Virus record (IMG/VR): IMGVR_UViG_2563366874_000012
Strand: one strand, 5' to 3'
Origin: a virus
Lineage: Duplodnaviria; Heunggongvirae; Uroviricota; Caudoviricetes
DNA length: 50,800 nt
In this document: positions 8,921 to 47,792 of the stretch, piece after piece
Layout of the letters: each line of letters begins with the position of its first letter
How positions within the stretch are numbered: position 1 is the stretch's first letter
The notes under the pieces: model-generated
The model's input: the letters and a program-made list of their open reading frames with translations, nothing else
The model's database searches: none
Told to the model about the DNA's origin: nothing
Made by a program: the position numbers and the translations under genes

Positions 8921-8983
8921 GCAAAAGTTTCCATGCTGTTTGTGCTTATTCTAAGCAACCGGGCAGCATCATACGGGGCAATT

Positions 8984-9790: not shown

Positions 9791-9796
9791 CTGACC

Positions 9797-10543: not shown

Positions 10544-10565
10544 TTTTTACCGGGAGAAAAATTTA

Positions 10566-11327: not shown

Positions 11328-11342
11328 TTGCCGGAGGCACCT

Positions 11343-11765
11343 ATGGCAAAAGTATTTACACCAGAAGAGCGAGAAAAAATTAAAGGACAGGTTGTTGAAC
11401 TTGTACCTCTGAGCGGTCGCGAGACGTTACGGCAACTGGAAGCCAAGACAGGTGAGACAAGATATCTGATGAGTGTTCTCGCCAGTGAGCTGGTTGCCAG
11501 TGGCGATGTATACAACTCTGGTTACGGGTTATTCCCGTCTGAACAGGCGCGTAAAGACTGGCAAAACGCCCGCAAAAAACTATCGAGGGCAAAGGTGAAG
11601 AAACCTGCTGTAGTTGATCCGGACCTTATCTGGTCATTACCAGACGGAGAAATACGCCGCTATGACAGGCGTCTGAATATAATCTGTCGCGAGTGCCGGA
11701 AGAGCGAAGTCATGCAGCGTGTACTGGCGTTCTATCAGGGTAATTTTCAGGATGTGCTGTTGTGA
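11343..11765 (+). CDS. Hypothetical nin-region protein
   Basis: 141-aa ORF MAKVFTPEEREKIKGQVVELVPLSGRETLRQLEAKTGETRYL...; GGAGG SD 7 nt upstream. Confidence 0.5.
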   Translation: MAKVFTPEEREKIKGQVVELVPLSGRETLRQLEAKTGETRYLMSVLASELVASGDVYNSGYGLFPSEQARKDWQNARKKLSRAKVKKPAVVDPDLIWSLPDGEIRRYDRRLNIICRECRKSEVMQRVLAFYQGNFQDVLL

Positions 11766-11927
11766 GCCAAATTAACAATCAGGGAACTGCGTGAACTGAA
11801 AGAGAAATCATAATCCAAATCTGAATAATTAAATTTAGCACTGTAAATAAAATTTAATCCTTAACCGGAGGGGGGGGGCTGCACCCTCAAAATATTAGGA
11901 GGCGGCCCGAAAGGGCGGTAATGAAAA

Positions 11928-12431
11928 ATGACTGAATTAACCAAAAAGCAATTAATCGAAGAAGCTAAATTAAAAATAGCGATTGAGAAATGCCACCCCA
12001 ATTCAGGGATGGCACGGGTAGAGGGCGAATTATTCAAAATTGCTCTGGCATCGCTGGAAGCAGAGCCAGTTGGTGATTTTTATGAATACAAACCGGATGA
12101 CTGGTATCAGCGTTCGGCTGGAGATAAAGCGCCAAAATGGACGCCACCCTATGCCGTTTTTCCAGCGCCCGTAGTGCCGGAAGAAATGGATTTGCTTACA
12201 TGCCATCTCGATGGTGTAACTGAAACATATGCTGAGGGATGGAACGCTTGCCGCGCTGCCCTGCTTCAGGGCAAAGGGGAGCCCGGGAAACAAGTTCGCG
12301 AATTGACAATGCTGGTTAAACAATTGGTTAGTCAACTGAAGAAACCGAAACCGGGCTGCAAATTGCCGGATAAAGTGATGGACTACCTGGAGCGAAGCGG
12401 ACTTATAAGCGTGGAGGATGTTTTACGATGA
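11928..12431 (+). CDS. Hypothetical protein
   Basis: 167-aa ORF MTELTKKQLIEEAKLKIAIEKCHPNSGMARVEGELFKIAL...; unusual leader with AGGAGG, a GNRA hairpin and a G9 tract upstream. Confidence 0.5.
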   Translation: MTELTKKQLIEEAKLKIAIEKCHPNSGMARVEGELFKIALASLEAEPVGDFYEYKPDDWYQRSAGDKAPKWTPPYAVFPAPVVPEEMDLLTCHLDGVTETYAEGWNACRAALLQGKGEPGKQVRELTMLVKQLVSQLKKPKPGCKLPDKVMDYLERSGLISVEDVLR

Positions 12432-12511
12432 CCTGGCCTGAAGCATTCACAACGGTAGGAATTGCGATGGCGGTGGCGCTGGTGGTGTATTCGATTTGCC
12501 GCTGGGGTTGA
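12428..12511 (+). CDS. Possible 27-aa hydrophobic micro-protein
   Basis: ATG overlaps the upstream stop (ATGA); MTWPEAFTTVGIAMAVALVVYSICRWG, a single predicted TM helix; below the ORF-track size cut-off. Confidence 0.25.
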   Translation: MTWPEAFTTVGIAMAVALVVYSICRWG

Positions 12512-12524
12512 TAATACTAAATAA

Positions 12525-12543
12525 CCAGCCCTTATGGGGCTGG
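12525..12543. terminator. Hairpin between convergent genes (likely terminator for the KilA-N gene)
   Basis: CCAGCCC-ttatg-GGGCTGG stem-loop; U-rich on the minus-strand side (ttatttagtattat). Confidence 0.45.
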
Positions 12544-12551
12544 CTAATCAT

Positions 12552-13325
12552 TTAGAACTGTTCATTGCCATCGAGGTTAGGTAGCATAATTTTTTCAATC
12601 AAGGCGAGAGCCTTTTTGTCCCGGTCAGCGAAGTATTTCGGGGCATATTGCGGCAACCAAATATTGTTAAAATGTTCTTTGAAATCTGCTAAATATTCAT
12701 TTGGGTACAGCCTTGCAGGGTATACGCGACCATCGGGATATTCATGGTCATAGGTAGGGAATGTTTTGGGTTCTACGTTTCTATTATCTCTTAACCATTG
12801 TGAAAATACTCTTCCTTGTGAAATGTCAGGAACCATTTTTTCTGGGAGTGTGTACCCTGCTTGTTCAAGAGGTGCAACCAAGTTGAATGTCAGTTCATTA
12901 AGAATAGAAAAGTGCGTGTGAGGAATTCTACTACGATTAACCATGTACCGTTTTAAATGTACAGGCATTTCTGCTGTAGTTCTTTCCCCTGACATCCATT
13001 CACGAACCCATCTTGAAACCTGGACTGCAAATTTGGGCGATAGCCACTGCGCTAGATTAATAGCGATGTCAGGATGCACCCATGTCCCTTGGTTTTCAGG
13101 TCTTCCACCTTTAAATGATTGAATTAACTCCGATATGGGAATTCCCATATCGCGTGATAATTCGTCAAAAAACTCTTGAGTAGTTTTGAGTCTAGTGTAA
13201 TCAGAGAGCAGTTTGCCCGCAGTTCTACACATTGATGTGGCGTTTATGTAACCATCTTTGGCACGTAAATGTATTATTTCGCCGTCAATTTCACGAGAAA
13301 TCAAAGATAATTGAAAGGATGTCAT
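12552..13325 (-). CDS. KilA-N domain protein (antirepressor-like DNA-binding N-terminus)
   Basis: 257-aa ORF MTSFQLSLISREIDGEIIHLRAKDGYINATSMCRTAGKLLSDYTRLKTTQEFFDEL, typical KilA-N N-terminus. Confidence 0.65.
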   Translation of the reverse strand: MTSFQLSLISREIDGEIIHLRAKDGYINATSMCRTAGKLLSDYTRLKTTQEFFDELSRDMGIPISELIQSFKGGRPENQGTWVHPDIAINLAQWLSPKFAVQVSRWVREWMSGERTTAEMPVHLKRYMVNRSRIPHTHFSILNELTFNLVAPLEQAGYTLPEKMVPDISQGRVFSQWLRDNRNVEPKTFPTYDHEYPDGRVYPARLYPNEYLADFKEHFNNIWLPQYAPKYFADRDKKALALIEKIMLPNLDGNEQF

Positions 13326-13847
13326 TGAAAATTCCTCAAGTTGGAGAGTTCTGGAACATTAAGGCGAGGTGGCAGTAATGCACCATCTGTAATCTTTTGA
13401 TACTGACGTAATCGGGCCTGATGTGCAACGCCTTGCAAGTATGTAACTCATTGAAAACGATCATTTTTATCTATTGACATCAAATGGCAAACTGTCATTG
13501 TGCGGCTATGGCAAGTGGCAAATGCTTATAAATCATATGGATATAAATAGTACAGAAAGAGTTGTTTTCTCTAGGATATGAGTATACGCCCAATGCTGAT
13601 TGGTTGAATTTTGTTCTTGTTTTAAAGGGTAAGAGTTTAAAGTGTTGGCAGTGATGTATTGGATAGTTAGAATTGCTGTGGGTGCTTGAGGCTATCTGCC
13701 TCGGGCATGAACACCAAAGGTAGATAGAGAAAAGCCCCAGTTAACATTACGCGTCCTGCAAGACGTTTAACATTAATCTGAGGCCATATCTATGCGACAC
13801 ATAGAGATTAGCCTCTTGCGGACCGAAAGGTCAAGGAGAAGCAGGCT

Positions 13848-13973
13848 ATGAAGCAGCAAAAGGCGATGTTAATCGCCCTGATCGTCATCTGTTTAACCGT
13901 CATAGTGACGGCACTGGTAACGAGGAAAGACCTCTGCGAGGTACGAATCCGAACTGGCAGACGGAGGCTCTGA
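13848..13973 (+). CDS. Hok/Gef-family type I toxin homologue with divergent, short C-terminus (possibly inactive)
   Basis: 41-aa ORF MKQQKAMLIALIVICLTVIVTALVTRKDLCEVRIRTGRRRL*; matches recalled HokD/Gef through ...CEVRIRTG then diverges and stops about 10 codons early; 19-codon upstream ORF ends overlapping the ATG. Confidence 0.55.
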   Translation: MKQQKAMLIALIVICLTVIVTALVTRKDLCEVRIRTGRRRL

Positions 13974-17733: not shown

Positions 17734-18054
17734 CGTTGTTAGGCTCTGGAAACATCCTCGACTTCTTGTTAGCAAGCCTGAGAGCCTGAATCTTACACTT
17801 AGCACCATCCGAACTCTCGGAGGTGAGGCTTATGAAAATGCACAATGCCCCTCATTCCTGGCCTGACTTACTGGAACTCTTACAAAGTTGGTGGCGTGGA
17901 GATACGCCGCTGGGTGCAGTGGTTATGTCAATTATTATGGCTGGTTTGCGCATTGCCTATTTTGGCGGTGGCGGCGGCTGGAAACGAAAAACGCTTGAGA
18001 TTCTGCTTTGTGGTGCTCTGACGCTGACCTTTGCATCCGCGCTTGGATTTGCCC

Positions 18055-18960
18055 CTATATTTCCAGACATCTGTTATCACTTAACCCATTACAAGCCCGC
18101 TGCCGCAGATATTCCCGTGGCGAGCGATAACCCAGCGCACTATGCGGATGCCATTCGTTATAATGCTCGAACGCCTCTGCAAGGTTCTTTGCTGCCGTTA
18201 ACCCGTCTGGTTTGGGCATGATACTGATGTAGTCACGCTTTATCGTTTTCACGAAGCTCTCTGCTATTCCGTTACTCTCCGGACTCCGCACCGCCGTGTT
18301 CTTCGGTTCAAGTCCCAACATCCGGGCGAACTGGCGTGTTTCATTAGCCCGGTAGCATGAACCATTATCCGTCAGCCACTCCACTGGAGACGACGGAAGA
18401 TCGTTGCCGAAGCGGCGTTCCACCGCTCCCAGCATGACGTCCTGTACTGTTTCACTGTTGAAGCCGCCGGTAGTGACCGCCCAGTGCAGTGCCTCACGAT
18501 CACAGCAGTCCAGCGCGAACGTGACACGCAGTCTCTCTCCGTTATCACAGCAGAACTCGAACCCGTCAGAGCACCATCGCTGATTGCTTTCTTTCACGGC
18601 CACTCTGCCTGTATGTGCCCGTTTCGATGGCGGTACAGCAGGTTTTCGCTCAAGCAACAGCGCATTCTGGCGCATGATCCGGTAAACACGTTTGGCATTG
18701 ATCGCAGGCATACCATCAAGTTCTGCCTGTCTGCGAAGCAGCGCCCATACCCGACGATAACCATACGTTGGCAGCTCTCCGATAACATGGTGTATACGGA
18801 GAAGCACATCCGTATCATCAGTGTGACGACTGCGGCGGCCATCCATCCAGTCATCGGTTCGTCTGAGAATGACGTGCAACTGCGCACGCGACACCCGGAG
18901 ACAACGGCTGACTAAGCTTACTCCCCATCCCCGGGCAATAAGGGCGCGTGCGCTATCCAC
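18055..18960 (-). CDS. insD: IS2 transposase OrfB (InsD)
   Basis: 301-aa [49 protein letters not shown]... with DDE integrase-type core. Confidence 0.9.
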
Positions 18961-19283
18961 TTTTTTGCCCGTCCATATTCAACGGCTTCTTTGAGGAGTT
19001 CATTTTCCATCGTTTTCTTGCCGAGCAGGCGCTGGAGTTCTTTAATCTGCTTCATGGCGGCAGCAAGTTCAGAGGCAGGAACAACCTGTTCTCCGGCGGC
19101 GACAGCAGTAAGACTTCCTTCCTGGTATTGCTTACGCCAGAGAAATAACTGGCTGGCTGCTACACCATGTTGCCGGGCAACGAGGGAGACCGTCATCCCC
19201 GGTTCAAAGCTCTGCTGAACAATTGCGATCTTTTCCTGTGTGGTACGCCGTCTGCGTTTCTCCGGCCCTAAGACATCAATCAT
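18918..19283 (-). CDS. insC: IS2 OrfA (InsC) HTH protein
   Basis: 121-aa [59 protein letters not shown]... Confidence 0.9.
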
Positions 19284-19512
19284 CTGTTCTCCAATGACTA
19301 GTCTAAAAACTAGTATTAAGACTATCACTTATTTAAGTGATATTGGTTGTCTGGAGATTCAGGGGGCCAGTCTAGCGCTTGAGTATGTCGGATGGCCTAA
19401 ATCACTTTCTGTTGCCATTGGTGGTGGGGTGGGGCTGATTGGTGTTGATGCTATTCGTGGTGCGGCAATGAGGGTCATCGGTAACAAGTTCGGTGCCCAT
19501 AAGGAGTAATTA

Positions 19513-20450: not shown

Positions 20451-20587
20451 AATCTTAACTACAATATGATTCATTTTGATGATTGTTTCATAAGGAACAG
20501 TGAAGTAAGATCTAAGAGGAGTTAAATTTTATACAGTATAATCATAATATTGCAGCAAGGTGGTTATAATTGAAAGAATATTTAGAT

Positions 20588-22045
20588 ATGAATACATCTC
20601 ATGTAAGAGTTGTTACTCATATGTGTGGGTTCCTGGTTTGGCTCTATAGTCTTTCAATGTTGCCACCAATGGTTGTAGCATTGTTTTATAAAGAAAAAAG
20701 CCTGTTCGTTTTCTTTATAACTTTCGTTATATTTTTTTGCATTGGTGGCGGAGCGTGGTATACAACTAAGAAATCTGGCATTCAATTACGTACCCGTGAT
20801 GGGTTTATTATAATTGTAATGTTTTGGATTTTGTTTTCTGTTATTAGTGCATTCCCTTTATGGATTGACTCAGAACTTAATTTAACGTTCATTGATGCTC
20901 TGTTTGAAGGGGTTTCTGGAATAACAACAACAGGAGCAACTGTAATTGATGATGTTAGTTCATTACCTCGGGCATATTTGTACTATCGGTCACAGTTAAA
21001 TTTTATAGGTGGTTTAGGAGTTATTGTTCTGGCGGTTGCTGTATTGCCATTATTGGGTATTGGTGGTGCAAAGCTTTATCAGTCAGAAATGCCGGGGCCA
21101 TTTAAGGATGACAAACTCACTCCCCGCCTGGCCGATACGTCACGGACACTGTGGATAACTTATTCTTTATTAGGTATTGCTTGTATTGTCTGTTATAGAC
21201 TTGCAGGAATGCCTTTGTTTGATGCTATTTGTCACGGGATTTCCACAGTTTCGCTTGGTGGTTTCTCAACTCATAGCGAGAGTATCGGATATTTTAATAA
21301 CTATTTGGTTGAGCTGGTGGCTGGTTCTTTTTCCCTGCTATCGGCTTTCAACTTCACTCTTTGGTATATTGTTATTAGCAGGAAAACGATAAAACCTTTA
21401 ATCAGAGATATTGAACTTCGTTTCTTTCTGTTAATAGCCTTAGGGGTGATCATTGTTACCTCTTTCCAGGTCTGGCATATAGGTATGTATGACTTGCATG
21501 GAAGTTTTATTCATTCGTTTTTTCTTGCCAGCTCCATGCTCACTGATAATGGTTTAGCTACGCAGGATTATGCAAGTTGGCCCACGCACACGATAGTGTT
21601 TTTGCTGTTGTCAAGTTTCTTTGGGGGATGTATAGGTTCAACTTGTGGTGGAATTAAGTCACTTCGATTTCTTATACTTTTCAAACAAAGCAAACACGAG
21701 ATAAATCAGCTTTCTCATCCCAGAGCGTTGTTGAGTGTAAATGTAGGAGGGAAGATAGTTACAGATCGTGTAATGAGGTCTGTATGGAGTTTCTTTTTTC
21801 TTTATACTCTCTTCACGGTGTTTTTTATACTGGTGTTAAATGGTATGGGATATGATTTTCTTACATCATTTGCAACAGTGGCTGCATGTATTAATAATAT
21901 GGGATTAGGTTTTGGGGCTACTGCATCGTCATTCGGAGTGCTTAATGACATTGCAAAATGTTTAATGTGCATAGCTATGATTCTTGGTCGCCTTGAAATT
22001 TATCCTGTTATTATATTGTTTTCAGGTTTTTTTTGGCGCTCCTAA
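20588..22045 (+). CDS. trkG: TrkG potassium uptake membrane protein (Rac-encoded TrkH paralogue)
   Basis: 485-aa polytopic membrane protein MNTSHVRVVTHMCGFLVWLYSLSMLPPMVVALFYKEKS... with repeated TrkH-type pore segments; AT-rich; TATAAT at 20537-20542 upstream. Confidence 0.9.
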   Translation: MNTSHVRVVTHMCGFLVWLYSLSMLPPMVVALFYKEKSLFVFFITFVIFFCIGGGAWYTTKKSGIQLRTRDGFIIIVMFWILFSVISAFPLWIDSELNLTFIDALFEGVSGITTTGATVIDDVSSLPRAYLYYRSQLNFIGGLGVIVLAVAVLPLLGIGGAKLYQSEMPGPFKDDKLTPRLADTSRTLWITYSLLGIACIVCYRLAGMPLFDAICHGISTVSLGGFSTHSESIGYFNNYLVELVAGSFSLLSAFNFTLWYIVISRKTIKPLIRDIELRFFLLIALGVIIVTSFQVWHIGMYDLHGSFIHSFFLASSMLTDNGLATQDYASWPTHTIVFLLLSSFFGGCIGSTCGGIKSLRFLILFKQSKHEINQLSHPRALLSVNVGGKIVTDRVMRSVWSFFFLYTLFTVFFILVLNGMGYDFLTSFATVAACINNMGLGFGATASSFGVLNDIAKCLMCIAMILGRLEIYPVIILFSGFFWRS

Positions 22046-33898: not shown

Positions 33899-34348
33899 AT
33901 GTTTATTCTTAATCAGAAAATTATCATCGGTGGAGAACGCTGGTTTACGCCAATGAAGGACTTAAAACCTATAGACGGGTTAAAACTGTTGGTGGCAAGC
34001 AGCGATAACGATCAGTATCGCTCCCGTAATGCATTAATCCGTCGTCACATTGAGAAAATGGATGCCAGTTTGCACGTCGGAACGAAGGAGTTTGATATTT
34101 CAAAGGTTTCCGAGGTAGATTCTGTTGATGATTTACTCATTGATAATGCTGCTCGTTATCTGCTGAAAGACTGGAAAGGGGTTGGTGAACTGGTTAATGG
34201 TGCTGAGGTTGCACTGGAATATACGCCAGAACGAGGGATCGCGCTGCTTAAGCAGAATCCAGAGTTGTACTGGCAGATCCTTGCAGAAGCAGCCAGCATC
34301 GCCCAGGGTAAAGAGCAGCAGAAGCAGGATACGATAAAAAAGCCATAG
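33899..34348 (+). CDS. Tail assembly chaperone G
   Basis: About 150-aa ORF ending ...QQKQDTIKKP*; GAGG upstream of ATG 33899 (frame opens at 33887); slippery heptamer near its 3' end. Confidence 0.6.
   Translation: MFILNQKIIIGGERWFTPMKDLKPIDGLKLLVASSDNDQYRSRNALIRRHIEKMDASLHVGTKEFDISKVSEVDSVDDLLIDNAARYLLKDWKGVGELVNGAEVALEYTPERGIALLKQNPELYWQILAEAASIAQGKEQQKQDTIKKP
34336..34342 (+). other. Programmed -1 ribosomal frameshift slippery site A_AAA_AAG (G to GT)
   Basis: In the G frame the codons are AAA (34337-34339) and AAG (34340-34342), preceded by A34336; the -1 frame is open from 34312 through 34656. Confidence 0.6.
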
Positions 34349-34656
34349 CCGCCCAGCGGTGGTTATCGGAGTTCGGGGGAGAAAGGGGGGAAAAGGCAAG
34401 ATGGAAGCGAGAAAAACTCAGGTTGCCACCGATACCGGAACCAGAAATAGACCCGGTGCTTAAGGAATTGTTGTACGCCTATTCGGTAATATCCCGTGCC
34501 CGACGTTATGCTGGAATGACCGGGGTGCCTTTGCCTTTATCTCTGACAGAGATAAATGAATATTTAGCCACTCATCCGGTATTGATTGAGCGCGATGAGT
34601 TTGAAGCAGTGATCTTTGCACTGGATGACCAGTATTTTCAGGAGCAGTGTGTGTAG
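34342..34656 (+). CDS. T-extension of tail assembly chaperone (expressed as G-T fusion by -1 frameshift)
   Basis: -1 frame ORF ...PPIPEPEIDPVLKELLYAYSVISRARRYAGMTGVPLPLSLTEINEYLATHPVLIERDEF... lacking an independent ATG and SD. Confidence 0.55.
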   Translation, partial: AIAAQRWLSEFGGERGEKARWKREKLRLPPIPEPEIDPVLKELLYAYSVISRARRYAGMTGVPLPLSLTEINEYLATHPVLIERDEFEAVIFALDDQYFQEQCV

Positions 34657-34779
34657 TTGTTAATTACGTACACTCTGTTACAGAGATGTGATGGTGTCTT
34701 TAATTAAATCGATGATGCTCCTGGAGAAAAGCATTGCGTGGCCTCGTAATCGCTATATCTACTATTATGTCGCCTGAAA

Positions 34780-34799
34780 CCCACTTCGGTGGGCTTTTT
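34780..34799 (+). terminator. Terminator-like hairpin upstream of tape measure gene
   Basis: CCCAC-ttcg-GTGGG followed by CTTTTTGTTGT. Confidence 0.45.
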
Positions 34800-34819
34800 G
34801 TTGTCTGGAGTTTTAATAA

Positions 34820-37800
34820 ATGGCAGAGCAAACCTCGCGTCTCGCAATAATTATTGATAGCACTGGAGCAAAAAATAATGCTGACAATCTGACCTCCTCA
34901 TTAGTCAAAATGACGCAGGCCGGGGAAACTGCTGCAAATAGCGCAGGGAAAGTGACTAAGGCAACAGAAGATGAGAAGAACGCGCTCGCAAAATTAAAAG
35001 CAGCTATTGATCCAGTTGGTGCCGCAATTGATACTGTCGGTCGACGCTATTCTGAATTAAAGAAATTTTTCGATAAAGGGCTTATTGATAAAGAAGAATA
35101 TGAATTTCTTGTCCGTAAACTTAATGAAACCACAGAGGAATTGAGCGGGGTTGCGCAAGCGCAGAGAGAAGCCGAGAAGGCCGGAAAACTTGCTGCCGCC
35201 CAGCAGGAAGCGCAGACTCAGGCCTTTCAAAGAATGCTGGACAAGATCGACCCTCTGGCTGCGGCGCTAAGAAATCTTGAACAACAGCAGGATGAACTTA
35301 ATGCTGCGTTTGCATCCGGGAAAATAAATGGTTCTCAGTTTGAGAATTATAGCCGAAAAATACAGGAAACACGGCGAGAGCTTACCGGAGAGGCTCAGGC
35401 AGAGCGAGAAGCAGCAAAAGCGCATGATGAACAGGTTGCTGCTTTGCAACGTCTGATTGCTCAACTTGACCCTGTCGGAACTGCTTTTAATCGTCTGGTA
35501 GAACAACAGAAACAGCTCAATGAAGCAAAAGCTAAGGGGATGCTCTCTCCTGAAATGTATGAGGAACTTTCTGGAAAACTTCGTGCTATGCGGAGTGAGC
35601 TTGAGGTTACTCAATCTCAATTAAGCAAAACCGGAATGTCGGCAAAACAAACGGCTTTTGCTATGCGCATGTTGCCTGCACAAATGACGGATATTGTTGT
35701 TGGGTTGTCCACTGGTCAGTCGCCTTTTATGGTGTTAATGCAGCAGGGCGGCCAGCTAAAAGATATGTTCGGTGGGATTGGCCCGGCGATCAAAGGTGTT
35801 GGTTCTTATGTGCTGGGATTAATTAATCCTTTTACCCTGGCCGCAGCAGCCGTTGGCGTCTTAGGGCTGGCTTACTATAAAGGCTCTCAGGAGCAGGACG
35901 AATTTAATAAGTCTCTTATTCTTACCGGAAATCAGTTGGGGACAACCAGCGGGCAATTGGCCGATATAGTTCAACGTGCCGGGAATGCGGCTGATTCGAC
36001 AACTGGCGCTGCGGCGGCAGTATTAAACCAGCTTGTGCGTTCGGGAAAGGTAGCGAGCAGTTCGCTGGAGCAAGTGACGACAGCGATAGTAAAAACGAGC
36101 GAAGTAACAGGAATATCAACCGAACAACTGGTTAATGACTTCAATGAAATTGCAAAGGATCCTGTCAGTGCCATATCAAAACTTAATGATCAGTACCATT
36201 TTCTGACAATTGCGACTTATAACCAGATTAAGGCGCTACAGGATGAAGGGAACCAGCAGGAGGCCGCCCGCATTGCGACAGAAGCATACTCATCCTCAAT
36301 GATCCAGCGCACCAACCAGATTAAAGAAAATCTTGGTTATCTTGAGACTGCATGGAAAGCTGTCGCAGACTCCGCAAAATGGGCATGGGATTCCATGCTG
36401 GATATTGGCCGTGAGGCCTCCCTTGATCAAAAAATCTCAGATGTTCTCCGTCAAATTGATGAAATAGAAAAAAATACCCGACCCGGAGTTTTCGGGTTAG
36501 GTGGCATTGGAGATGGCGGAGCTCAAAATAAAAGGCTGGCACGATTAAAGCAGCAATTGGGCGTACTTCAAGCAGAAAAAATTGCTCAGGACGTACTAAA
36601 TTCATCAATAAACGATTACAACAAGCGACAACAGGAAGGAATTGAACTCAGACAGAGAGCAGATGCCTTTTCAAAACAATATCAGACCCGGGAGCAGCAG
36701 AGAGCTAGTGAACTTGCAAAACTGGAAAAACTAAAGAGTCAGTATTCAAAGGAAGAATATAATAATCTTATCGCTCAAATAAATGAGCGTTATAAAGATC
36801 CAAAGCAACCAAAGGCGAAAGGTTATTCGGATGATGCTGCCCAACGAATGATTGATCATCTGAATCAACAGAATGCGTTACTAAGTTCACAAACTGAATT
36901 AACCGTTAAATTAAGTTCCTCTGAACAGGAACTGGTTAAGTGGCGTCAGCAGATTGCCGACCTGGAGTCACGACCGTCATCGAAATTAACCAAGGATCAG
37001 AAATCGCTTCTCTTACACCGGGAAGAAATAACCGCGTTGATGGAGAAAAATGTTGCGATTGAAAAAAATAACAGGCTAATCAAGGAATCCGCCGAAATAG
37101 CTGCATGGCGTGATTCATTGCAGGCTTCGATTGATAATCGTCAACAGGGGTATGATATTCAGATTGCTGGTTATGGGGTTGGCGATAAAAATCAGCAACG
37201 CCAGCAGGAATTACTGCGGATTGAACGTGAATATAACAATCAGCGTCTGCAACTTGAACGTGACTATGCAGATAAATCCCGTGGGATGTCAAATCATGTT
37301 TTTCAGGAGAAAATGCAGGCTCTGAATGATGCTCTGGAACGAGAAAAAGAAATTGTCAGACAGAAAAACGAGCAGCTCGATATTCAGGCAGGAGACTGGG
37401 TTAGTGGTGCCTCCCAGGGATTCAATAACTGGCTGGATGACACTAAGGATATCAGTGAGCAGATAAAATCAACCACGACTCAGATGTTTGATGGAATGAC
37501 CGATGCGCTGGGTGATTTTGTCACGACAGGCAAAGCAAATTTTCGTTCTTTCGCTACTTCCGTGATTTCGGATCTTAGTCGAATAGCATTAAAGGCTTCA
37601 ATTACTGGGATTTTCGACAGCATTAGTAACAGTTCTTCTGGGGGGATTTTAGGAACTATCGGGAGTGCTATTAGTAAATTTATTCCGAATGCAAAGGGCG
37701 GTGTTTATGAGTCTCCGTCATTGAACACGTATTCGAACGGTATTTATGATTCCCCGCAATTTTTTGCTTTTGCAAGAGGGGCTGGTGTTTTTGGTGAGGC

Positions 37801-38053
37801 TGGTCCGGAAGCCATTATGCCATTAACACGAACTTCCGATGGTTCTCTTGGTGTCAGAGCTGTTAATAGTAAAAGTGGTAATGGAGGCGGAGATATTACC
37901 TATGCCCCTGTATACCAAATCACTATTCAAAATGACGGCCAGAATGGAGAGATTGGCCCTCAGGCAATAAAAGCACTTATGGGGATGGTTGATCAGCGGG
38001 TGCAGGGCAATCTGTTAAATATGCGACGTGATGGGGGAATGTTAAGTGGCTAA
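34820..38053 (+). CDS. Tail tape measure protein
   Basis: 1077-aa ORF, N-terminal coiled-coil-rich region, following G/GT; corresponds to Rac tmpR position. Confidence 0.85.
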
Positions 38054-38384
38054 TACGGAAGAATTTCACTGGTTACCAGAGGATGGAATGAAAACAGAAA
38101 ATAAACCATCGATAAAAACTGTAAGATTTGGCGATGGTTATGAGCAACGAAGTCCAAATGGACTTAATCATTCTCTGCGCGTTTTCACCTGTGATTTCAA
38201 AGTTGAGGCGAATGAACGTGATTCATTTGAAAAATTTTTAGCCCGGCATGAAGGCTATAAATCTTTTTTTTGGCGCCCGCCGGGTATTAACAGAAAAATC
38301 AGAGTGGTGTGTCGAACGTGGTCAGCGACAGAACATATCACCTATACCGATTTTTCGTGTCAGTTTGACGAAGTGGTGATCTGA
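38046..38384 (+). CDS. Minor tail protein M
   Basis: 112-aa ORF (GTG start) ...[35 protein letters not shown]... aligning by eye with lambda gpM. Confidence 0.75.
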
Positions 38385-39082
38385 TGCAGGACATACAACA
38401 GGAAACGCTGAATGAATGCATTCGTGCGGAGCAGTCGGCCAGCGTGGTGCTCTGGGAAATCGACCTGACCGAGGTAGGCGGGGATCGCTACTTTTTCTGT
38501 AATGAGCAGAACGAAAAAGGTGAGTCTGTCACCTGGCAGAGTCGGCAGTATCAGGCCTATCCCATTCAGGGGAGTGGATTTGAGATGAACGGCAAGGGCA
38601 GTGCTGCCCGTCCGACACTGGCGGTCTCTAACCTGCACGGCATGATCACCGGGATGGCGGAAGATCTGCAGAGTCTGGTCGGCGGAACGGTGGTCCGGCG
38701 TAAGGTTTACGCCCGCTTTCTGGATGCGGTGAACTTCGTCAACGGAAACAGCGAAGCCGATCCGGAGCAGGAGGTGATCAGCCGCTGGCGCATCGAGCAG
38801 TGCAGCGAACTGAGCGCGGTCAGTGCCTCTTTTGTACTGTCCACGCCGACTGAAACGGATGGCGCTGTTTTTCCGGGACGTATCATGCTGGCCAACACCT
38901 GCACCTGGACCTATCGCGGCGATGAGTGCGGTTATAGCGGTCCGGCGGTCGCGGATGAATATGACCAGCCGACGTCCGATATCACGAAGGATAAATGCAG
39001 CAAATGCCTGAGTGGCTGTAAGTTTCGCAATAATGTCGGCAACTTTGGCAGCTTCCTTTCCATTAACAAACTTTCGCAGTAA
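38384..39082 (+). CDS. Minor tail protein L
   Basis: 232-aa ORF with C-terminal Cys cluster (CTWTYRGDECGYSG...CSKCLSGCKF) as in lambda gpL. Confidence 0.8.
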   Translation: MQDIQQETLNECIRAEQSASVVLWEIDLTEVGGDRYFFCNEQNEKGESVTWQSRQYQAYPIQGSGFEMNGKGSAARPTLAVSNLHGMITGMAEDLQSLVGGTVVRRKVYARFLDAVNFVNGNSEADPEQEVISRWRIEQCSELSAVSASFVLSTPTETDGAVFPGRIMLANTCTWTYRGDECGYSGPAVADEYDQPTSDITKDKCSKCLSGCKFRNNVGNFGSFLSINKLSQ

Positions 39083-39087
39083 ATCCC

Positions 39088-39831
39088 ATGACAGAGACAG
39101 AATCAGCGATTCTGGCGCACGCCCGGCGATGTGCGCCAGCGGAGTCGTGCGGCTTCGTGGTGAGAACGCCGGAGGAGGAAAGATATTTTCCCTGCGTGAA
39201 TATCTCCGGTGAGCCGGAGGAGTATTTCCGGATGTCGCCGGAGGACTGGCTGAGTGCAGAAATGCAGGGAGAGATTGTGGCGCTGGTCCACAGCCACCCC
39301 GGTGGTCTGCCCTGGCTGAGTGAGGCCGACCGGCGGCTGCAGGTACAGAGTGATTTGCCGTGGTGGCTGGTCTGCCGGGGGGCGATTCATAAATTCCGCT
39401 GTGTGCCGCATCTCACCGGGCGGCGCTTTGAGCACGGGGTAACGGACTGTTACACGCTGTTCCGGGACGCTTACCATCTGGCGGGAATTGAGATGCCGGA
39501 TTTTCATCGCGGGGATGACTGGTGGCGTAACGGTCAGAATCTCTATCTGGATAATCTGGAGGCCACAGGGCTGTATCAGGTGCCGTTGTCAGCGGCGCAG
39601 CCGGGCGATGTGCTGCTGTGCTGTTTTGGTTCATCGGTGCCGAATCATGCCGCCATTTACTGTGGTGACAGCGAGCTGCTGCACCATATTCCTGAACAAC
39701 TGAGCAAACGAGAGAGGTACACCGACAAATGGCAGCGACGCACACACTCCCTCTGGCGTCACCGGGCATGGCACGCATCTGCCTTTACGGGGATTTACAA
39801 CGATTTGGCCGCCGCATCGACCTTCGAGTGA
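39088..39831 (+). CDS. Tail assembly protein K (MPN/JAB plus NlpC/P60-type)
   Basis: 247-aa ORF with HSHPGG motif; lambda gpK-like; 3' end overlaps I by about 100 nt. Confidence 0.8.
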   Translation: MTETESAILAHARRCAPAESCGFVVRTPEEERYFPCVNISGEPEEYFRMSPEDWLSAEMQGEIVALVHSHPGGLPWLSEADRRLQVQSDLPWWLVCRGAIHKFRCVPHLTGRRFEHGVTDCYTLFRDAYHLAGIEMPDFHRGDDWWRNGQNLYLDNLEATGLYQVPLSAAQPGDVLLCCFGSSVPNHAAIYCGDSELLHHIPEQLSKRERYTDKWQRRTHSLWRHRAWHASAFTGIYNDLAAASTFE

Positions 39832-40370
39832 AAACGGGGTCCGAAGCCATCCGGGCGCTGGCCATGCAGATCCCGGCATTTCGTCAGAAACTGAGCGACG
39901 GCTGGTACCAGGTACGCATTGCCGGGCGTGATGCAGGTGAAACCGAATTGTCTGCCCGTCTTAATGAGCCGCTGGAAAATGGTGCCGTGATCCATATCGT
40001 GCCGCGTCTGGCAGGAGCCAAAAGTGGCGGTGTGTTTCAGGCTGTGCTGGGGGCGGCTGTTATGGCGGTTGCTATATGGATGCCGGGGGTAGGAATTATG
40101 GCGAGTAATCTGCTGTTTTCTCTCGGTGCCAGTATGACGCTTGGCGGTGTTGCACAGATGCTGGCCCCTAAACCCAAAACCCCCCGCACACAGACAACGG
40201 ATAACGGCAAACAGAACACCTATTTTTCTTCACTGGATAACATGGTTGCCCAGGGCAATGTTCTGCCGGTTCTGTACGGTGAAATGCGCGTGGGGTCACG
40301 CGTGGTTTCTCAGGAGATCAGCACGGCAGACGAAGGGGATGGTGGTCAGGTTGTGGTGATTGGTCGCTGA
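39729..40370 (+). CDS. Tail assembly protein I
   Basis: 213-aa ORF MAATHTLPLASPGMARICLYGDLQRFGRRIDLRVKTG... matching recalled lambda gpI N- and C-termini. Confidence 0.75.
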   Translation: MAATHTLPLASPGMARICLYGDLQRFGRRIDLRVKTGSEAIRALAMQIPAFRQKLSDGWYQVRIAGRDAGETELSARLNEPLENGAVIHIVPRLAGAKSGGVFQAVLGAAVMAVAIWMPGVGIMASNLLFSLGASMTLGGVAQMLAPKPKTPRTQTTDNGKQNTYFSSLDNMVAQGNVLPVLYGEMRVGSRVVSQEISTADEGDGGQVVVIGR

Positions 40371-40390
40371 TGCAAAATGTTTTATGTGAA

Positions 40391-40409
40391 ACCGCCTCCG
40401 GGCGGTTTT
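40391..40409 (+). terminator. Terminator-like hairpin between I and J
   Basis: ACCGCC-tccg-GGCGGT followed by TTTATCGTTT. Confidence 0.45.
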
Positions 40410-40430
40410 ATCGTTTATGGAGCATGACGA

Positions 40431-43400
40431 ATGGGTAAAGGCAGCAGTAAGGGGCATACCCCGCGCGAAGCGAAGGACAACCTGAAGTCCACGCAGCTGC
40501 TGAGTGTGATCGATGCCATCAGCGAAGGGCCGGTTGAAGGTCCGGTGGATGGATTAAAAAGCGTGCTGCTGAACAGTACGCCGGTGCTGGACAGTGAGGG
40601 GAATACCAATATATCCGGCGTCACGGTGGTGTTCCGGGCCGGTGAGCAGGAGCAGACACCGCCGGAGGGATTTGAATCCTCCGGCTCCGAGACGGTGCTG
40701 GGTACGGAAGTGAAGTACGACACGCCGATTACCCGGACCATCACGTCGGCAAACATCGACCGTCTGCGCTTTACCTTCGGTGTGCAGGCACTGGTGGAAA
40801 CCACCTCAAAGGGGGACCGGAATCCGTCGGAAGTCCGCCTGCTGGTTCAGATACAGCGTAATGGTGGCTGGGTGACGGAAAAAGACATCACCATTAAAGG
40901 CAAAACCACCTCACAGTATCTAACATCGGTGGTGGTGGGTGACCTGCCGCCGCGCCCGTTCAATATCCGGATGCGCAGGATGACGCCGGACAGCACCACA
41001 GACCAGCTGCAGAACAAAACGCTCTGGTCGTCATACACCGAAATCATCGATGTGAAACAGTGCTACCCGAACACGGCACTGGTCGGCGTACAGGTGGATT
41101 CGGAGCAGTTCGGCAGCCAGCAGGTGAGCCGTAATTATCATCTGCGCGGGCGTATTCTGCAGGTGCCGTCGAACTATAACCCGCAGACTCGGCAATACAG
41201 CGGTATCTGGGACGGAACGTTTAAGCCAGCATACAGCAATAACATGGCCTGGTGTCTGTGGGATATGCTGACCCATCCACGCTACGGCATGGGGAAACGT
41301 CTTGGTGCGGCGGATGTGGACAAATGGGCGCTGTATGTCATCGGCCAGTACTGCGACCAGTCAGTGCCGGACGGCTTTGGCGGCACGGAGCCGCGCATCA
41401 CCTGTAATGCGTACCTGACCACACAGCGCAAGGCGTGGGATGTGCTCAGTGATTTCTGCTCGGCGATGCGCTGTATGCCGGTATGGAACGGGCAGACGCT
41501 GACGTTCGTGCAGGACCGACCGTCGGATAAGGTGTGGACCTATAACCGCAGTAATGTGGTGATGCCGGATGATGGCGCGCCGTTCCGCTACAGCTTCAGC
41601 GCCCTGAAGGACCGCCATAATGCCGTTGAGGTGAACTGGATTGACCCGGATAACGGCTGGGAGACGGCGACAGAGCTTGTTGAAGATACGCAGGCCATTG
41701 CCCGTTACGGTCGTAACGTCACGAAGATGGATGCCTTTGGCTGTACCAGCCGGGGGCAGGCACACCGCGCCGGGCTGTGGCTGATTAAAACGGAGCTGCT
41801 GGAAACGCAGACCGTGGACTTCAGCGTGGGCGCAGAAGGGCTTCGCCATGTACCGGGCGATGTCATTGAAATCTGTGATGATGACTATGCGGGTATCAGC
41901 ATCGGCGGGCGCGTGCTGGCGGTGAACAGCCAGACGCGGACGCTGACGCTCGACCGTGAAATCACGCTGCCATCCTCCGGCATCACGCTGATAAGCCTGG
42001 TTGACGGACAGGGGAATCCGGTCAGCGTGGAGGTTCAGTCCGTCACCGACGGCGTGAAGGTAAAAGTGAGCCGTGTTCCTGGCGGTGTTGCTGAATACAG
42101 CGTATGGGGGCTGAAGCTGCCGACGCTGCGCCAGCGACTGTTCCGCTGCGTGAGTATCCGTGAGAACGACGACGGCACGTATGCCATCACCGCCGTGCAG
42201 CATGTGCCGGAGAAAGAGGCCATCGTGGATAACGGGGCGCACTTTGACGGCGACCAGAGCGGCACGGTGAATGGTGTCACGCCGCCAGCGGTGCAGCACC
42301 TGACCGCCGAAGTCACCGCAGACAGCGGGGAATATCAGGTGCTGGCGCGATGGGACACGCCGAAGGTGGTGAAGGGCGTGAGCTTTATGCTTCGTCTGAC
42401 CGTGGCAGCGGATGACGGCAGTGAGCGGCTGGTCAGCACGGCCAGGACGACGGAAACCACATACCGCTTCACGCAACTGGCGCTGGGAAACTACAGGCTG
42501 ACAGTCCGGGCGGCAAATGCCTGGGGGCAGCAGGGCGATCCGGCATCGGTATCGTTCCGGATTGCCGCACCGGCAGCGCCGTCGCGGATTGAGCTGACGC
42601 CGGGCTATTTTCAGATAACCGCCACGCCGTATCTTGCCGTTTATGATCCGACGGTACAGTTTGAGTTCTGGTTCTCGGAAAAGCGGATTGCGGATATCAG
42701 GCAGGTTGAAACCACAGCCCGCTATCTTGGCACGGCGCTGTACTGGATAGCTGCCAGTATCAATATCAAGCCGGGCCATGATTATTATTTTTACATCCGC
42801 AGTGTGAACACCGTTGGCAAATCGGCATTCGTGGAGGCTGTTGGCCAGCCGAGTGATGATGCATCCGGCTATCTGGATTTTTTCAAAGGAGAGATAGGGA
42901 AAACCCATCTGGCTCAGGAGTTGTGGACGCAGATTGATAACGGTCAGCTTGCGCCTGACCTGGCTGAAATCAGGACGTCCATTACGGATGTCAGTAATGA
43001 AATCACGCAGACCGTCAATAAGAAACTGGAAGACCAGAGTGCAGCGATCTAGCAGATACAGAAGGTTCAGGTTGATACAAATAATAACCTGAACAGCATG
43101 TAGGCTGTGAAGCTGCAGCAGATGCAGGACGGACGCCTTTATATCGCGGGTATTGGTGCCGGTATTGAGAACACCCCTGACGGCATGCAGAGTCAGGTGC
43201 TGCTGGCGGCAGACAGGATTGCGATGGTTAATCCTGCGAATGGCAACACAAAGCCGATGTTTGTTGGTCAGGGCGATCAGATATTCATGAACGAAGTGTT
43301 CCTGAAATATCTGACGGCTCCCACCATTACCAGCGGCGGTAATCCTCCGGCATTTTCCCTGACACCGGACGGGCGGCTGACGGCGAAAAATGCCGATATC

Positions 43401-43910
43401 AGCGGTAGCGTGAATGCGAACTCCGGGACGCTCAACAACGTCACGATTAACGAGAACTGTCGGGTTCTGGGAAAACTGTCCGCGAACCAGATTGAAGGCG
43501 ATCTCGTTAAAACAGTGGGCAAAGCTTTCCCCCGGGACTCCCGTGCACCGGAGCGGTGGCCATCAGGGACCATTACCGTCAGGATTTATGACGATCAGCC
43601 GTTTGACCGGCAGATTGTTATTCCAGCGGTGGCATTCAGCGGTGCCAGACATGAACGGGAGAATAGCGATACTTATTCGTCATGCCGCCTGATAGTGAAG
43701 AAAAACGGGGCTGAAATTTATAACCGAACGGCGCTGGATAATACGCTGATTTACAGTGGCGTTATTGATATGCCTGCCGGTCACGGTCACATGACGCTGG
43801 AGTTTTCGGTGTCAGCATGGCTGGTAAATGACTGGTATCCCACAGCAAGTATCAGCGATTTGCTGGTTGTGGTGATGAAGAAAGCCACCGCAGGCATCAG
43901 TATCAGCTGA
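40431..43910 (+). pseudogene. Host specificity / central tail fibre protein J interrupted by two in-frame TAG codons
   Basis: One reading frame: 873 codons, TAG (43050-43052), 16 sense codons (QIQKVQVDTNNNLNSM), TAG (43101-43103), then 269 further codons [23 protein letters not shown]...; the track's downstream ORF starts at GTG 43107 with no SD. Confidence 0.8.
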
Positions 43911-43929
43911 ATTTTATAACCCCAATACG

Positions 43930-43953
43930 GGCGTCAGAAATGACGCCTTTTTT
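43930..43953 (+). terminator. Intrinsic terminator after J
   Basis: GGCGTCA-gaaa-TGACGCC followed by TTTTTT. Confidence 0.55.
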
Positions 43954-43977
43954 ATTGCAGAAAAGCGAGAGGTAATT

Positions 43978-44577
43978 ATGCGTAAATTATGTGCTGTTAT
44001 TCTGTCCGCAGTAGTCTGGCTGGTTGCCGCTGGTACGCCAGCGAGCGCAGCAGAGCATCAGTCCACACTAAGCGCCGGGTATCTTCAGACCCATACTGAT
44101 ATGCCCGGCAACGATGACCTGAAGGGCATTAACGTGAAATACCGTTATGAATTTACGGACACGCTGGGGCTGGTGACGTCATTCAGTTATGCCAATGCCA
44201 AAGATGAGCAAAAAACGCATTACAGCGATACCCGCTGGCATGAAGATTCAGTGCGTAACCGCTGGTTCAGCATGATGGCGGGGCCGTCTGTACGCGTGAA
44301 TGAATGGTTCAGTGCTTATGCGATGGCAGGTGTGGCTTACAGCCGTGTTTCAACGTTCTCCGGGGATTATCTCCGCGTAACTGACAGCAAGGGGAAAACG
44401 CACGATGTGCTGACCGGAAGTGATGACGGTCGCCACAGCAACACGTCTCTGGCGTGGGGGGCTGGCGTGCAGTTTAACCCGACCGAATCCGTGGCCATTG
44501 ATATTGCTTATGAAGGCTCCGGCAGTGGTGACTGGCGCACTGACGGTTTCATCGTGGGTGTCGGTTATAAATTCTGA
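43978..44577 (+). CDS. lom: Lom-like outer membrane protein (Ail/Lom family), intact
   Basis: 199-aa ORF with signal peptide MRKLCAVILSAVVWLVAAGTPASA and C-terminal beta-barrel signature ...GFIVGVGYKF; flanked by terminators on both sides. Confidence 0.8.
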   Translation: MRKLCAVILSAVVWLVAAGTPASAAEHQSTLSAGYLQTHTDMPGNDDLKGINVKYRYEFTDTLGLVTSFSYANAKDEQKTHYSDTRWHEDSVRNRWFSMMAGPSVRVNEWFSAYAMAGVAYSRVSTFSGDYLRVTDSKGKTHDVLTGSDDGRHSNTSLAWGAGVQFNPTESVAIDIAYEGSGSGDWRTDGFIVGVGYKF

Positions 44578-44604
44578 TTAGCCAGGTAACACAGTGTTAT
44601 GACA

Positions 44605-44630
44605 GCCCGCCGGTTCAGGCGGGCTTTTTT
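44605..44630 (+). terminator. Intrinsic terminator after lom
   Basis: GCCCGCC-ggttca-GGCGGGC followed by TTTTTT. Confidence 0.55.
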
Positions 44631-44999
44631 GTGGAGTGGATATGGCAGCAGTAAAAATCTCAGGTGTGCTGAAAGATGGTGCGGGAAAACCAATACAGAA
44701 CTGCACTATTCAACTGAAGGCAAAGCGTAACAGCACCACGGTACTGGTGAACACGGTGGCCTCTGAAAATCCGGATGAAGCCGGGCGTTACAGCATGGAT
44801 GTTGAGCATGGCCAGTACAGCGTCATCCTGCTGGTTGAAGGTTTTCCGCCTTCACATGCCGGGACCATTACCGTCTATGAAGGCTCCAGACCAGGTACGC
44901 TGAATGATTTTCTCGGTGCCATGACGGAAGATGATGTCATGCCGGAGGCATTGCGTCGTTTTGAGGCAATGGTGGAAGAAGTGGCACGCAACGCCGAAG

Positions 45000-45650: not shown

Positions 45651-46763
45651 CAGCTAAAGCAAGCGAAGATGCAGCCAGAGAGTACGCAAGCCAGGCTGCG
45701 GAGCCGTATAAATATGTCTTACAGCCGCTGCCTGATGTGTGGATACCATTTAACGATTCGCTGGATATGATTACGGGCTTTTCGCCATCATATAAAAAAA
45801 TTGTTATTGGTGACGATGAAATAACGATGCCTGGCGACAAGATTGTTAAGTTTAAACGTGCATCGAAAGCAACCTATATTAACAAATCTGGTGTGCTGAC
45901 AGAGGCTGCCATTGACGAGCCACGATTTGAACGTGATGGCCTGCTTATTGAGGGGCAAAGAACAAACTACATGCTCAATTCGGAAAGCCCTGCCAGTTGG
46001 GGGCGATCGTCAAATATGGATGTGCCCGAAACAGGGACGGATAATTTTGGTTTTACCTATGGAAAGTTTGTCTGCAACGATTCTCTGATTGGGCAAACCT
46101 CAGCCATTAATATGGCATCAATTGCTGCAACAAAGTCAGTTGATGTCTCAGGCGATAATAAACACGTGACAACCTCATGTCGTTTTAAAACAGAACTGCA
46201 GGTAAGGTTGCGTATCCGGTTTGATAAATATGACGGTAGCGCAACAACTTTTCTTGGTGATGCGTATATTGATACACAAACGCTTGAAATTAATATGACA
46301 GGCGGTGCTGCCTCAAGGATTACAGCGAGAGTCAGAAAGGACGAAGCTACCGGATGGATTTTTGCAGAGGCAACAATTCAGGCAATTGATGGGGAGTTAA
46401 AAATAGGCTCTCAGATACAGTATTCTCCTAAGCAGAGCGGGGCAACCGTATCTGGTGACTATATTTATCTGGCCACCCCACAAGTAGAAGATGGGCCTTG
46501 TGTATCATCTTTTATTATATCAGGAGCGACGGCGGCGACCCGCGCAAGCGATATAGTTACAGTTCCAATTAAGAATAATCTTTATAATCTTCCTTTTACG
46601 GTTCTTTGTGAGGTACATAAGAACTGGTATAAAACGCCAAATGCAGCGCCACGTGTTTTTGATACCGGCGGTCATCAAACCGGAGCGGCTATTATTCTTG
46701 GCTTCGGTCGTTCAACAGATTACGACGGATTTCCTTATTGCGATATTGGGTAATGACTCCAAC

Positions 46764-47267
46764 TTATTGATAGTGTTTTATGTTCAGATAATGCCCGATG
46801 ACTTTGTCATGCAGCTCCACCGATTTTGAGAACGACAGCGACTTCCGTCCCAGCCGTGCCAGGTGCTGCCTCAGATTCAGGTTATGCCGCTCAATTCGCT
46901 GCGTATATCGCTTGCTGATTACGTGCAGCTTTCCCTTCAGGCGTGATTCATACAGCGGCCAGCCATCCGTCATCCATATCACCACGTCAAAGGGTGACAG
47001 CAGGCTCATAAGACGCCCCAGCGTCGCCATAGTGCGTTCACCGAATACGTGCGCAACAACCGTCTTCCGGAGCCTGTCATACGCGTAAAACAGCCAGCGC
47101 TGGCGCGATTTAGCCCCGACATAGCCCCACTGTTCGCCCATTTCCGCGCAGACGATGACGTCACTGCCCGGCTGTATGCGCGAGGTTACCGACTGCGGCC
47201 TGAGTTTTTTAAGTGACGTAAAATCGTGTTGAGGCCAACGCCCATAATGCGGGCAGTTGCCCGGCAT
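46764..47267 (-). CDS. insB: IS1 InsB transposase ORF
   Basis: 167-aa ORF ...[43 protein letters not shown]... Confidence 0.9.
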
Positions 47268-47461
47268 CCAACGCCATTCATGGCCATATCAATGATTTTC
47301 TGGTGCGTACCGGGTTGAGAAGCGGTGTAAGTGAACTGCAGTTGCCATGTTTTACGGCAGTGAGAGCAGAGATAGCGCTGATGTCCGGCGGTGCTTTTGC
47401 CGTTACGCACCACTCCGTCAGTAGCTGAACAGGAGGGACAGCTGATAGAAACAGAAGCCAC
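47186..47461 (-). CDS. insA: IS1 InsA
   Basis: 91-aa [94 protein letters not shown]. Confidence 0.9.
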
Positions 47462-47792
47462 TGGAGCACCTCAAAAAAACCATCATACGCTAAATCAGTA
47501 AGTTGGCAGCATCACCCGATATTGGAGGAGCTAACAGACGGGTAAACGAAAACGCATCGCTTGAAAAAATGGTTATGGGGATGCGTGTAAAGTCAGAGCA
47601 GTCTACGTGCTCAGTAAGTAACGGGCATATATCCAGCGAAACAAAAACCACATGGTCCTGTATTCAGAACACCGCAATTATCCGTATTGGAGGCCAGACT
47701 ACAGCCGGGTTACGTCATTTATTTGGTCATGTCAGGAATTTCAGAATATGGCACAAGGCATTGACTGATGCTCAGGTGGGGGAGTCAATCTA

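Follow-up and report, generated by a model that had tools for sequence, protein, structure and literature searches.

The tail tip gene J of a lambdoid prophage in Escherichia coli KTE21 is interrupted by two in-frame amber (TAG) codons, the first in place of a glutamine (Q874*) and the second in place of a tryptophan (W891*). This double amber is most probably (at a probability of roughly 0.78) a patchwork formed by recombination between prophages, whereby two J paralogues with a single stop each were joined in an element that was already defective. The DNA analysed, here called the window, is 50,800 nucleotides in length; positions refer to it, and features are on its plus strand unless stated otherwise. 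The feature is real yet ordinary and belongs to a known kind: a pseudogene in a decaying prophage.

The J gene, which encodes the tip attachment protein or central tail fibre, occupies positions 40431-43910 (+) as a pseudogene of 1159 codons with two internal TAG codons. This is evident from its translation, from Pfam domains that are split between ORFs and from its colinearity with lambda J. The N-terminal open reading frame (ORF) spans 40431-43052 (+), with 873 codons and the first TAG, and its product is recorded as ELC41472.1, “phage tail protein [E. coli KTE21]”. The first amber resides at 43050-43052 (+), where CAG has become TAG through C>T at 43050. It is followed by 16 sense codons (43053-43100, +) in the same frame as their flanks, and by the second amber at 43101-43103 (+), where TGG has become TAG through G>A at 43102. 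A C-terminal remnant of 268 codons, ending with the TGA at 43908-43910, extends through 43104-43910 (+); it corresponds to the central fibre and receptor-binding domain and is predicted to be untranslated. All three segments lie in one frame. Translation thus confirms the layout described in an earlier note on this DNA, namely ORFs of 873 and 268 codons separated by two TAG codons with 16 codons between them.

The Pfam domains FNIII-A_GpJ, Phage-tail_3, Ig_J and Ig_J_second are found in the first ORF, and Phage_Tail_Tip and Ig_GpJ_C in the last segment, which bears out the earlier description of the latter as J-like. The full gpJ/TipJ domain series is therefore present between gpI and lom, spread over two ORFs. 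An uninterrupted J frame of ~1130-1165 codons is not, as it is stopped at codons 874 and 891. The exact 873-amino acid product occurs in one contig only of the gene index, that of KTE21. It had also been stated that the downstream segment has neither an ATG nor a ribosome-binding site. Start codons do exist, a GTG at 43107 and an ATG at 43122, and GenBank calls a 262-amino acid ORF (ELC41473.1) from the ATG; the statement holds in that no Shine–Dalgarno sequence is found upstream of either. J is not a genuinely split gene, as the second part has no Shine–Dalgarno sequence of its own and the homologues are single ORFs of 1159 codons. The contrary case, a homologous J that truly ends at 43052 with a separate gene after it, is not found among them. 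The region 40431-43910 is one J gene cut in two.

Alignment with homologues identifies the codons that were lost. CAG and TGG are found at sites 874 and 891 in FUJ80154, phage PhiR55_1 and phage 21, and likewise in the approximately 30 J homologues that were fetched, except for three copies from sister genomes. As the earlier note had anticipated, the close homologues aligned all have CAG and TGG as the ancestral codons, which gives C>T at the first site and G>A at the second. Its statement that lambda J itself reads CAG and then TGG was correct for the second site (TGG, W863); the first is GAG (E846) in lambda, within a locally diverged stretch, and the CAG holds for the close alleles. In-frame stops are not conserved among J homologues. 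Neither amber was seen in a set of 5,426 complete RefSeq genomes, nor in ~6,950 copies of J from 3,550 complete genomes, and exact-pattern scans of IMG/VR, the JGI metagenomes and the GTDB representative genomes returned nothing for either. Both ambers are rare and limited to one lineage.

Two changes to the same stop codon within 51 nt had been regarded as unusual. That both are TAG is expected, since 74% of the GC>AT nonsense routes in J yield this codon. Their closeness does stand out, at p ~0.03 for two nonsense sites within 52 nt. This leaves a residual coincidence of the same size, in that two paralogues gained stops 51 nt apart.

The window is identical to contig KB732322.1 of GCA_000350785.1, the draft genome of the clinical isolate E. 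coli KTE21, presumably a short-read assembly; no literature mentioning KTE21 was found. When J was surveyed in sister strains, a check the earlier note had proposed, each amber was found singly, in two different gene copies. The genome OZ040122.1 carries two J pseudogenes, one per prophage. Copy A (locus L024/L038) resides at the same Rac/sit locus as that of KTE21, where the side tail fibre gene, stf, also bears the IS1 insertion seen in KTE21. In copy A of OZ040122.1, as in that of CP164482.1 (locus L026), codon 874 is TAG and codon 891 is TGG. Copy B (locus L037 of OZ040122.1) has the reverse arrangement, with CAG at 874 and TAG at 891. Its prophage lies ~205 kb from copy A in inverted orientation and differs in its tape measure, of 853 amino acids; the head is of lambda type. 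The copy A loci were retrieved by the Lom protein of the window and copy B by a 180-amino acid form of gpI. Exact protein look-up in OZ040122.1 returned an 873-amino acid product with A165 and an 890-amino acid product with Q874 that ends at M890; the matching downstream ORFs exist as a D-type of 270 amino acids, present in roughly 10 assemblies, and an M-type of 262 amino acids.

Across 33978-40921, there are 0 differences between KTE21 and copy A of OZ040122.1 or CP164482.1. These two genomes are clonal relatives that have the first amber in common with KTE21. Copies A and B of OZ040122.1 are identical to each other over 4,494 bp, equivalent to 38471-42964 of the window (from gpL through K and I into the 5′ part of J). 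Beyond 42964 they differ at 60 sites, up to 43889. A-type alleles match many intact ones, including those of DLI.6n, MS 196-1, L019, L020 and others, and the 3′ part of copy B matches MS 69-1; A and B are thus the parental types, of which the KTE21 sequence is a mosaic. In OZ040122.1, the two parents are seen to be co-resident (L038 and L037).

The mosaic can be followed site by site. KTE21 has the A or the B state at 60/60 informative sites in 42965-43889, with 0/60 private to it. The comparison gives a B patch at 42965-42983 (+), an A patch at 42995-43050 (+) that contains the first TAG, and a B patch at 43102-43169 (+) that contains the second. An A site at 43211 (+) precedes a longer B patch at 43227-43553 (+). 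This is followed by A at 43584-43613 (+), B at 43625 (+), A at 43634 (+), B at 43643-43730 (+) and finally A at 43733-43889 (+). The first stop is therefore the copy-A state, which was inherited, and the second the copy-B state. As 43050 is A, 43102 is B and no informative site lies between them, an A-to-B switch must fall in the 51-nt interval between the ambers. Over 38362-44633 as a whole, KTE21 agrees with A only at 52 sites, with B only at 32 and with neither at 4. The KTE21 combination is absent from RefSeq complete genomes; over 43060-43740, even the closest sequence among them shows 6 mismatches to KTE21. A search of the same genomes for an intact natural allele that agrees with KTE21 over that stretch found none.

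A third allele type, resembling that of GN06156, accounts for a further patch at 40922-40955 (+). It holds 40923 G>A (A165T), the only change in KTE21 J that is found in no other copy examined. A UV-type CC>TT tandem at 40922-40923 was considered and rejected, the A at 40922 being a polymorphism common to GN06156 and Z1323CEC0017. Taken at face value, the KTE21 lineage has 3 hits in J against 0.47 expected. This apparent excess vanishes once both ambers are regarded as inherited. The premise of the earlier note, two hits in the lineage of one gene copy, is not supported: KTE21 has the first amber in common with the corresponding locus of OZ040122.1 and CP164482.1, the second lies in the J of another prophage of OZ040122.1, and KTE21 J is a patchwork of the two.

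A patchwork of this nature might also be made by software, if KTE21 has two J copies with one amber each that were merged in the draft as an assembly or consensus chimera. Mixed reads of two paralogues could produce alternating A and B states. The mosaic is confined to this draft, the two chromosome-scale sister assemblies (single records of 5.34 and 5.40 Mb) have a clean copy A, and no separate 890-amino acid or M-type 262-amino acid product of KTE21 is on record. Against this, the B-to-A switch at 43730/43733 is flanked by runs of 18 and 22 variant sites, and a junction of this type could come neither from a k-mer graph nor from a majority consensus. The patch at 40922-40955 is of a minority, third allele type with a base unique among the copies, and would not arise from a majority consensus of A and B. 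Both observations argue for real recombinant molecules. The window is also without N gaps. A chimera is accordingly considered unlikely.

Recombination between the paralogues also has to be weighed against sequential decay, in which the first amber inactivated J and the KTE21 copy later acquired the second as a neutral, de novo change. GC>AT transitions such as these two are common among spontaneous mutations, 5.4% of the GC>AT changes in J are nonsense, and a stop downstream of another stop would be neutral. However, the identical G>A in the identical codon is present in the other J copy of a sister genome, and 43102 opens a tract, 43102-43730, in which 25 further sites match copy B. For the same change to have struck twice, 43102 would have to be a hot spot. 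Independent decay of the one copy is therefore very unlikely.

Both amber sites lie inside a quasi-palindrome of 78 nt within the coding sequence (43040-43117, a feature without strand), with a DNA fold of -15.9 kcal/mol and z = -3.99. A conserved RNA or DNA structure was rejected, as the homologous stretch in lambda does not fold (z = -0.17). The two changes have opposite effects on the hairpin: G>A at 43102 replaces a G.T mismatch with an A.T pair, whereas C>T at 43050 disrupts a C.G pair. A template switch, in which the new base should pair with the opposite arm, therefore suits 43102 and not 43050. The sites are not paired with each other, which excludes a compensatory pair. Deamination of an unpaired hairpin cytosine is compatible with 43102, where the minus strand has P unpaired 0.99, and not with 43050 (P unpaired 0.12). 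A nearby direct or inverted repeat that could have served as template for the new sequences was sought and not found.

Another lesion has been placed in the same stretch: in MS 196-1, an IS2 element is inserted at 43092-43096 (codon 889), between both amber sites. Three independent lesions, Q874*, the IS2 of MS 196-1 and W891*, are therefore observed within 53 nt in different genomes. It is doubtful that 43040-43117, at the junction of the J hub and fibre, is a real hot region for J inactivation. Were it one, structure-driven mutagenesis combined with IS2 targeting could be the cause. Alternatively, truncation of J just past the hub might be favoured in polylysogens.

The element that harbours J fills the window (1-50800, +) and is a Rac-site lambdoid prophage, as indicated by intR, recET (both recE and recT are encoded), ralR/RalA, kilR, sieB, head and tail genes, J, lom, stf and an end adjoining sitD. 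The early region likewise contains trkG, and the gene order around J is L-K-I-J-lom-stf. Rfam reports RalA and sok only in the window. Outside J-lom, the prophage is nearly identical to that of MS 69-1, KN12-1 and TUM14771. Over the ~44 kb outside J, KTE21 has six SNPs that are absent from both the MS 69-1 clade and the outgroup (polarised with strain 50579417). Their spectrum is mixed, and a prophage-wide GC>AT hypermutation is rejected on these grounds.

Two insertion sequences have inactivated other genes of the element. An IS2 of 1331 bp with a 5-bp duplication (GCGCT) occupies 18044-19374 on the minus strand inside a lambda-family holin gene, of which remnants persist at 17832-18043 and 19375-19509. 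This gene is intact in MS 69-1, KN12-1, TUM14771 and 50579417. An IS1 at 46750-47516 (minus strand) with the flanking repeat CGATATTGG has shortened stf to ~703 codons, and its junctions are identical in OZ040122.1 and CP164482.1. The prophage is defective even apart from J, and J is a pseudogene in a defective Rac-site prophage. The relaxed selection on J that had been proposed earlier is consequently supported by the two GC>AT nonsense changes together with the IS2 in holin and the IS1 in stf of the same prophage.

These lesions also bear on whether a functional J might be produced in an amber-suppressing host that reads through the stops. Both stops are TAG, the frame downstream remains open, and Marshall and Levy are said to have described amber suppressors in natural coliforms in 1980. 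However, an open downstream frame is uninformative at such low divergence, and TAG would be the outcome of 74% of GC>AT nonsense routes regardless of the host. No tRNA gene is located in the 50.8-kb window, and the stops are confined to few genomes. A working J would also fail to rescue a prophage with IS2 in its holin and IS1 in its stf. Suppression is thus a highly improbable explanation.

The earlier note had further suggested an engineered double-amber allele, to which laboratory selection may be added as a route. The classical sus mutants of lambda are TAG alleles obtained with GC>AT mutagens, and would offer a precedent. Yet the source is a clinical isolate, KTE21 J is not the lambda allele, and each amber occurs singly in independent natural sister genomes. 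The suggestion of a laboratory origin is scarcely credible and is set aside.

In the proposed course of events, recombination between co-resident prophages would have brought together two mutations of separate origin. Q874* would have arisen as a GC>AT transition in a D-type allele, which now resides at the Rac site in the sister genomes. W891* would be a separate GC>AT transition in an M-type allele, now located in the second lambdoid prophage of the sister genomes. Gene conversion between both prophages may then have homogenised ~4.5 kb of L, K, I and the 5′ part of J. In KTE21, conversion would have left a fine patchwork in the last ~950 nt of J, with both stops included. The direction and the number of these recombination events are what we infer from the distribution of states.

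A single conversion event is argued against by the nine switches within ~770 nt, some of them only 9-16 nt apart. So dense a pattern would require that heteroduplex repair was patchy, that more than one event took place or that the donor is outside the sample. Studies of defective prophages have found that short mosaics between them are commonplace, with a median exchange of a few hundred bp, and that Rad52-like recombinases, the RecT of Rac included, promote exchange on diverged DNA (PMC3945230).

The consequence for the gene product would be set by the first stop. Translation is predicted to end at codon 873, such that the hub domains could be made and the central fibre and receptor-binding domain could not. 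The second stop would lie in sequence that is already untranslated and would have no further effect. From the sequence of KTE21 J, it appears that no infectious tail could form.

The J gene of KTE21 illustrates, one site at a time, that co-resident lambdoid prophages exchange short stretches of DNA and that such exchange can accumulate lesions instead of repairing them. It also shows that, when a phage gene is present in several copies, a pair of neighbouring nonsense codons is not necessarily a sign of two hits in one lineage, of selection or of engineering. There is a practical warning in this: such a finding calls first for a look at paralogues and sister genomes, and a draft assembly of a gene of this type calls for confirmation at the level of reads.

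Compared with known systems, KTE21 J is closest in organization to gpJ of lambda (NP_040600.1). The two have in common the L-K-I-J-lom-stf position, the Pfam domain series and 960 identical residues among 1131 aligned. Lambda gpJ has 1132 codons as opposed to 1159 in KTE21, whose frame is broken at 874 and 891, and the stretch around the first amber of KTE21 has diverged from lambda and is phage 21-like. The element as a whole resembles Rac of E. coli K-12 in its site next to ttcA and in carrying intR, xisR, ralR/RalA, recET, kilR, sieB and trkG. The Rac prophage of K-12 has lost most of its head and tail genes, whereas the head and tail gene set of the KTE21 element is complete.

The classical J amber (sus) mutants of lambda have TAG in J through GC>AT transitions, as does KTE21. 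The KTE21 allele differs from these in being natural, from a wild isolate and with no known suppressor, and it is not a conditional-lethal tool. Quasi-palindromes are established hot spots of template-switch mutation, for example in thyA of E. coli. KTE21 is like these in that G>A at 43102 improves the stem, and unlike them in that C>T at 43050 breaks a pair and has no nearby template. The nearest parallel in the type of event is found in the defective lambdoid prophages of E. coli (Asadulghani 2009, PMC2669165; De Paepe 2014, PMC3945230), which are likewise co-resident, carry inactivating lesions and, by homologous recombination, undergo short exchanges between near-identical sequences. KTE21 differs from those prophages in that its exchange can be traced site by site and in that it joined two nonsense mutations, with no function rescued.

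Both amber codons of the J pseudogene lie inside a 78-nt quasi-palindrome at 43040-43117, which has a DNA fold z-score of -3.99. In the MS 196-1 homologue, an IS2 (L006, the locus carrying this insertion, 2867-4197) resides within the same quasi-palindrome, with the duplication AACAG at 43092-43096. Together with the two ambers, this brings the number of independent J lesions to three within 53 nt. The hairpin is absent from the homologous stretch of lambda.

The two J-bearing prophages of OZ040122.1 are different elements that are inverted and separated by approximately 205 kb. Copy A, the J at the Rac/sit locus (L038), carries the first TAG only, and copy B, the J of the second prophage (L037), carries the second only. 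The two prophages share a tract of 4,494 bp without a single difference (8644-13137 in both L037 and L038, equivalent to 38471-42964 here), which takes in gpL-K-I and the 5′ portion of J. This identity points to a large, recent gene conversion between the two elements, the end of which is 86 nt upstream of the first amber site.

At 40922-40955 lies a short stretch in which J is of a third allele type, similar to that of strain GN06156. This stretch includes 40923 G>A (A165T), the sole change in J that is unmatched among all copies examined. In lom (44007-44415), KTE21 agrees with copy B and not with copy A at 44007, 44028 and 44415, sites directly adjoining those where KTE21 matches copy A. 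These are more likely private copy-A changes in the OZ040122.1/CP164482.1 lineage than recombination patches.

The side tail fibre gene stf is cut short by an IS1 (46750-47516; flanking repeat CGATATTGG). As the IS1 junctions in OZ040122.1 and CP164482.1 are the same, they mark the three as descendants of a common ancestor. An IS200-like element is present in the lom-stf interval of OZ040122.1 and CP164482.1 and absent from KTE21. The set of IS insertions differs by lineage of this prophage: MS 69-1, KN12-1 and TUM14771 carry an IS5 at 12517-12520, where KTE21 has none. Within the lambda-family holin gene of KTE21 there is a 1331-bp IS2 (18044-19374; 5-bp duplication GCGCT), flanked by gene remnants at 17832-18043 and 19375-19509. 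The holin gene is uninterrupted in MS 69-1, KN12-1, TUM14771 and the outgroup strain 50579417.

Rfam matches identify the RalA antitoxin sRNA (1557-1735; 225 bits) and sok (13680-13850; 99 bits), so the prophage contains two predicted type I toxin-antitoxin loci. The gene ynaK, a neighbour of trkG, is truncated in close relatives. The potassium transporter gene trkG itself (20570-22045) has the lysis genes on one side and the terminase genes on the other, the same position that it occupies in other Rac-type prophages.
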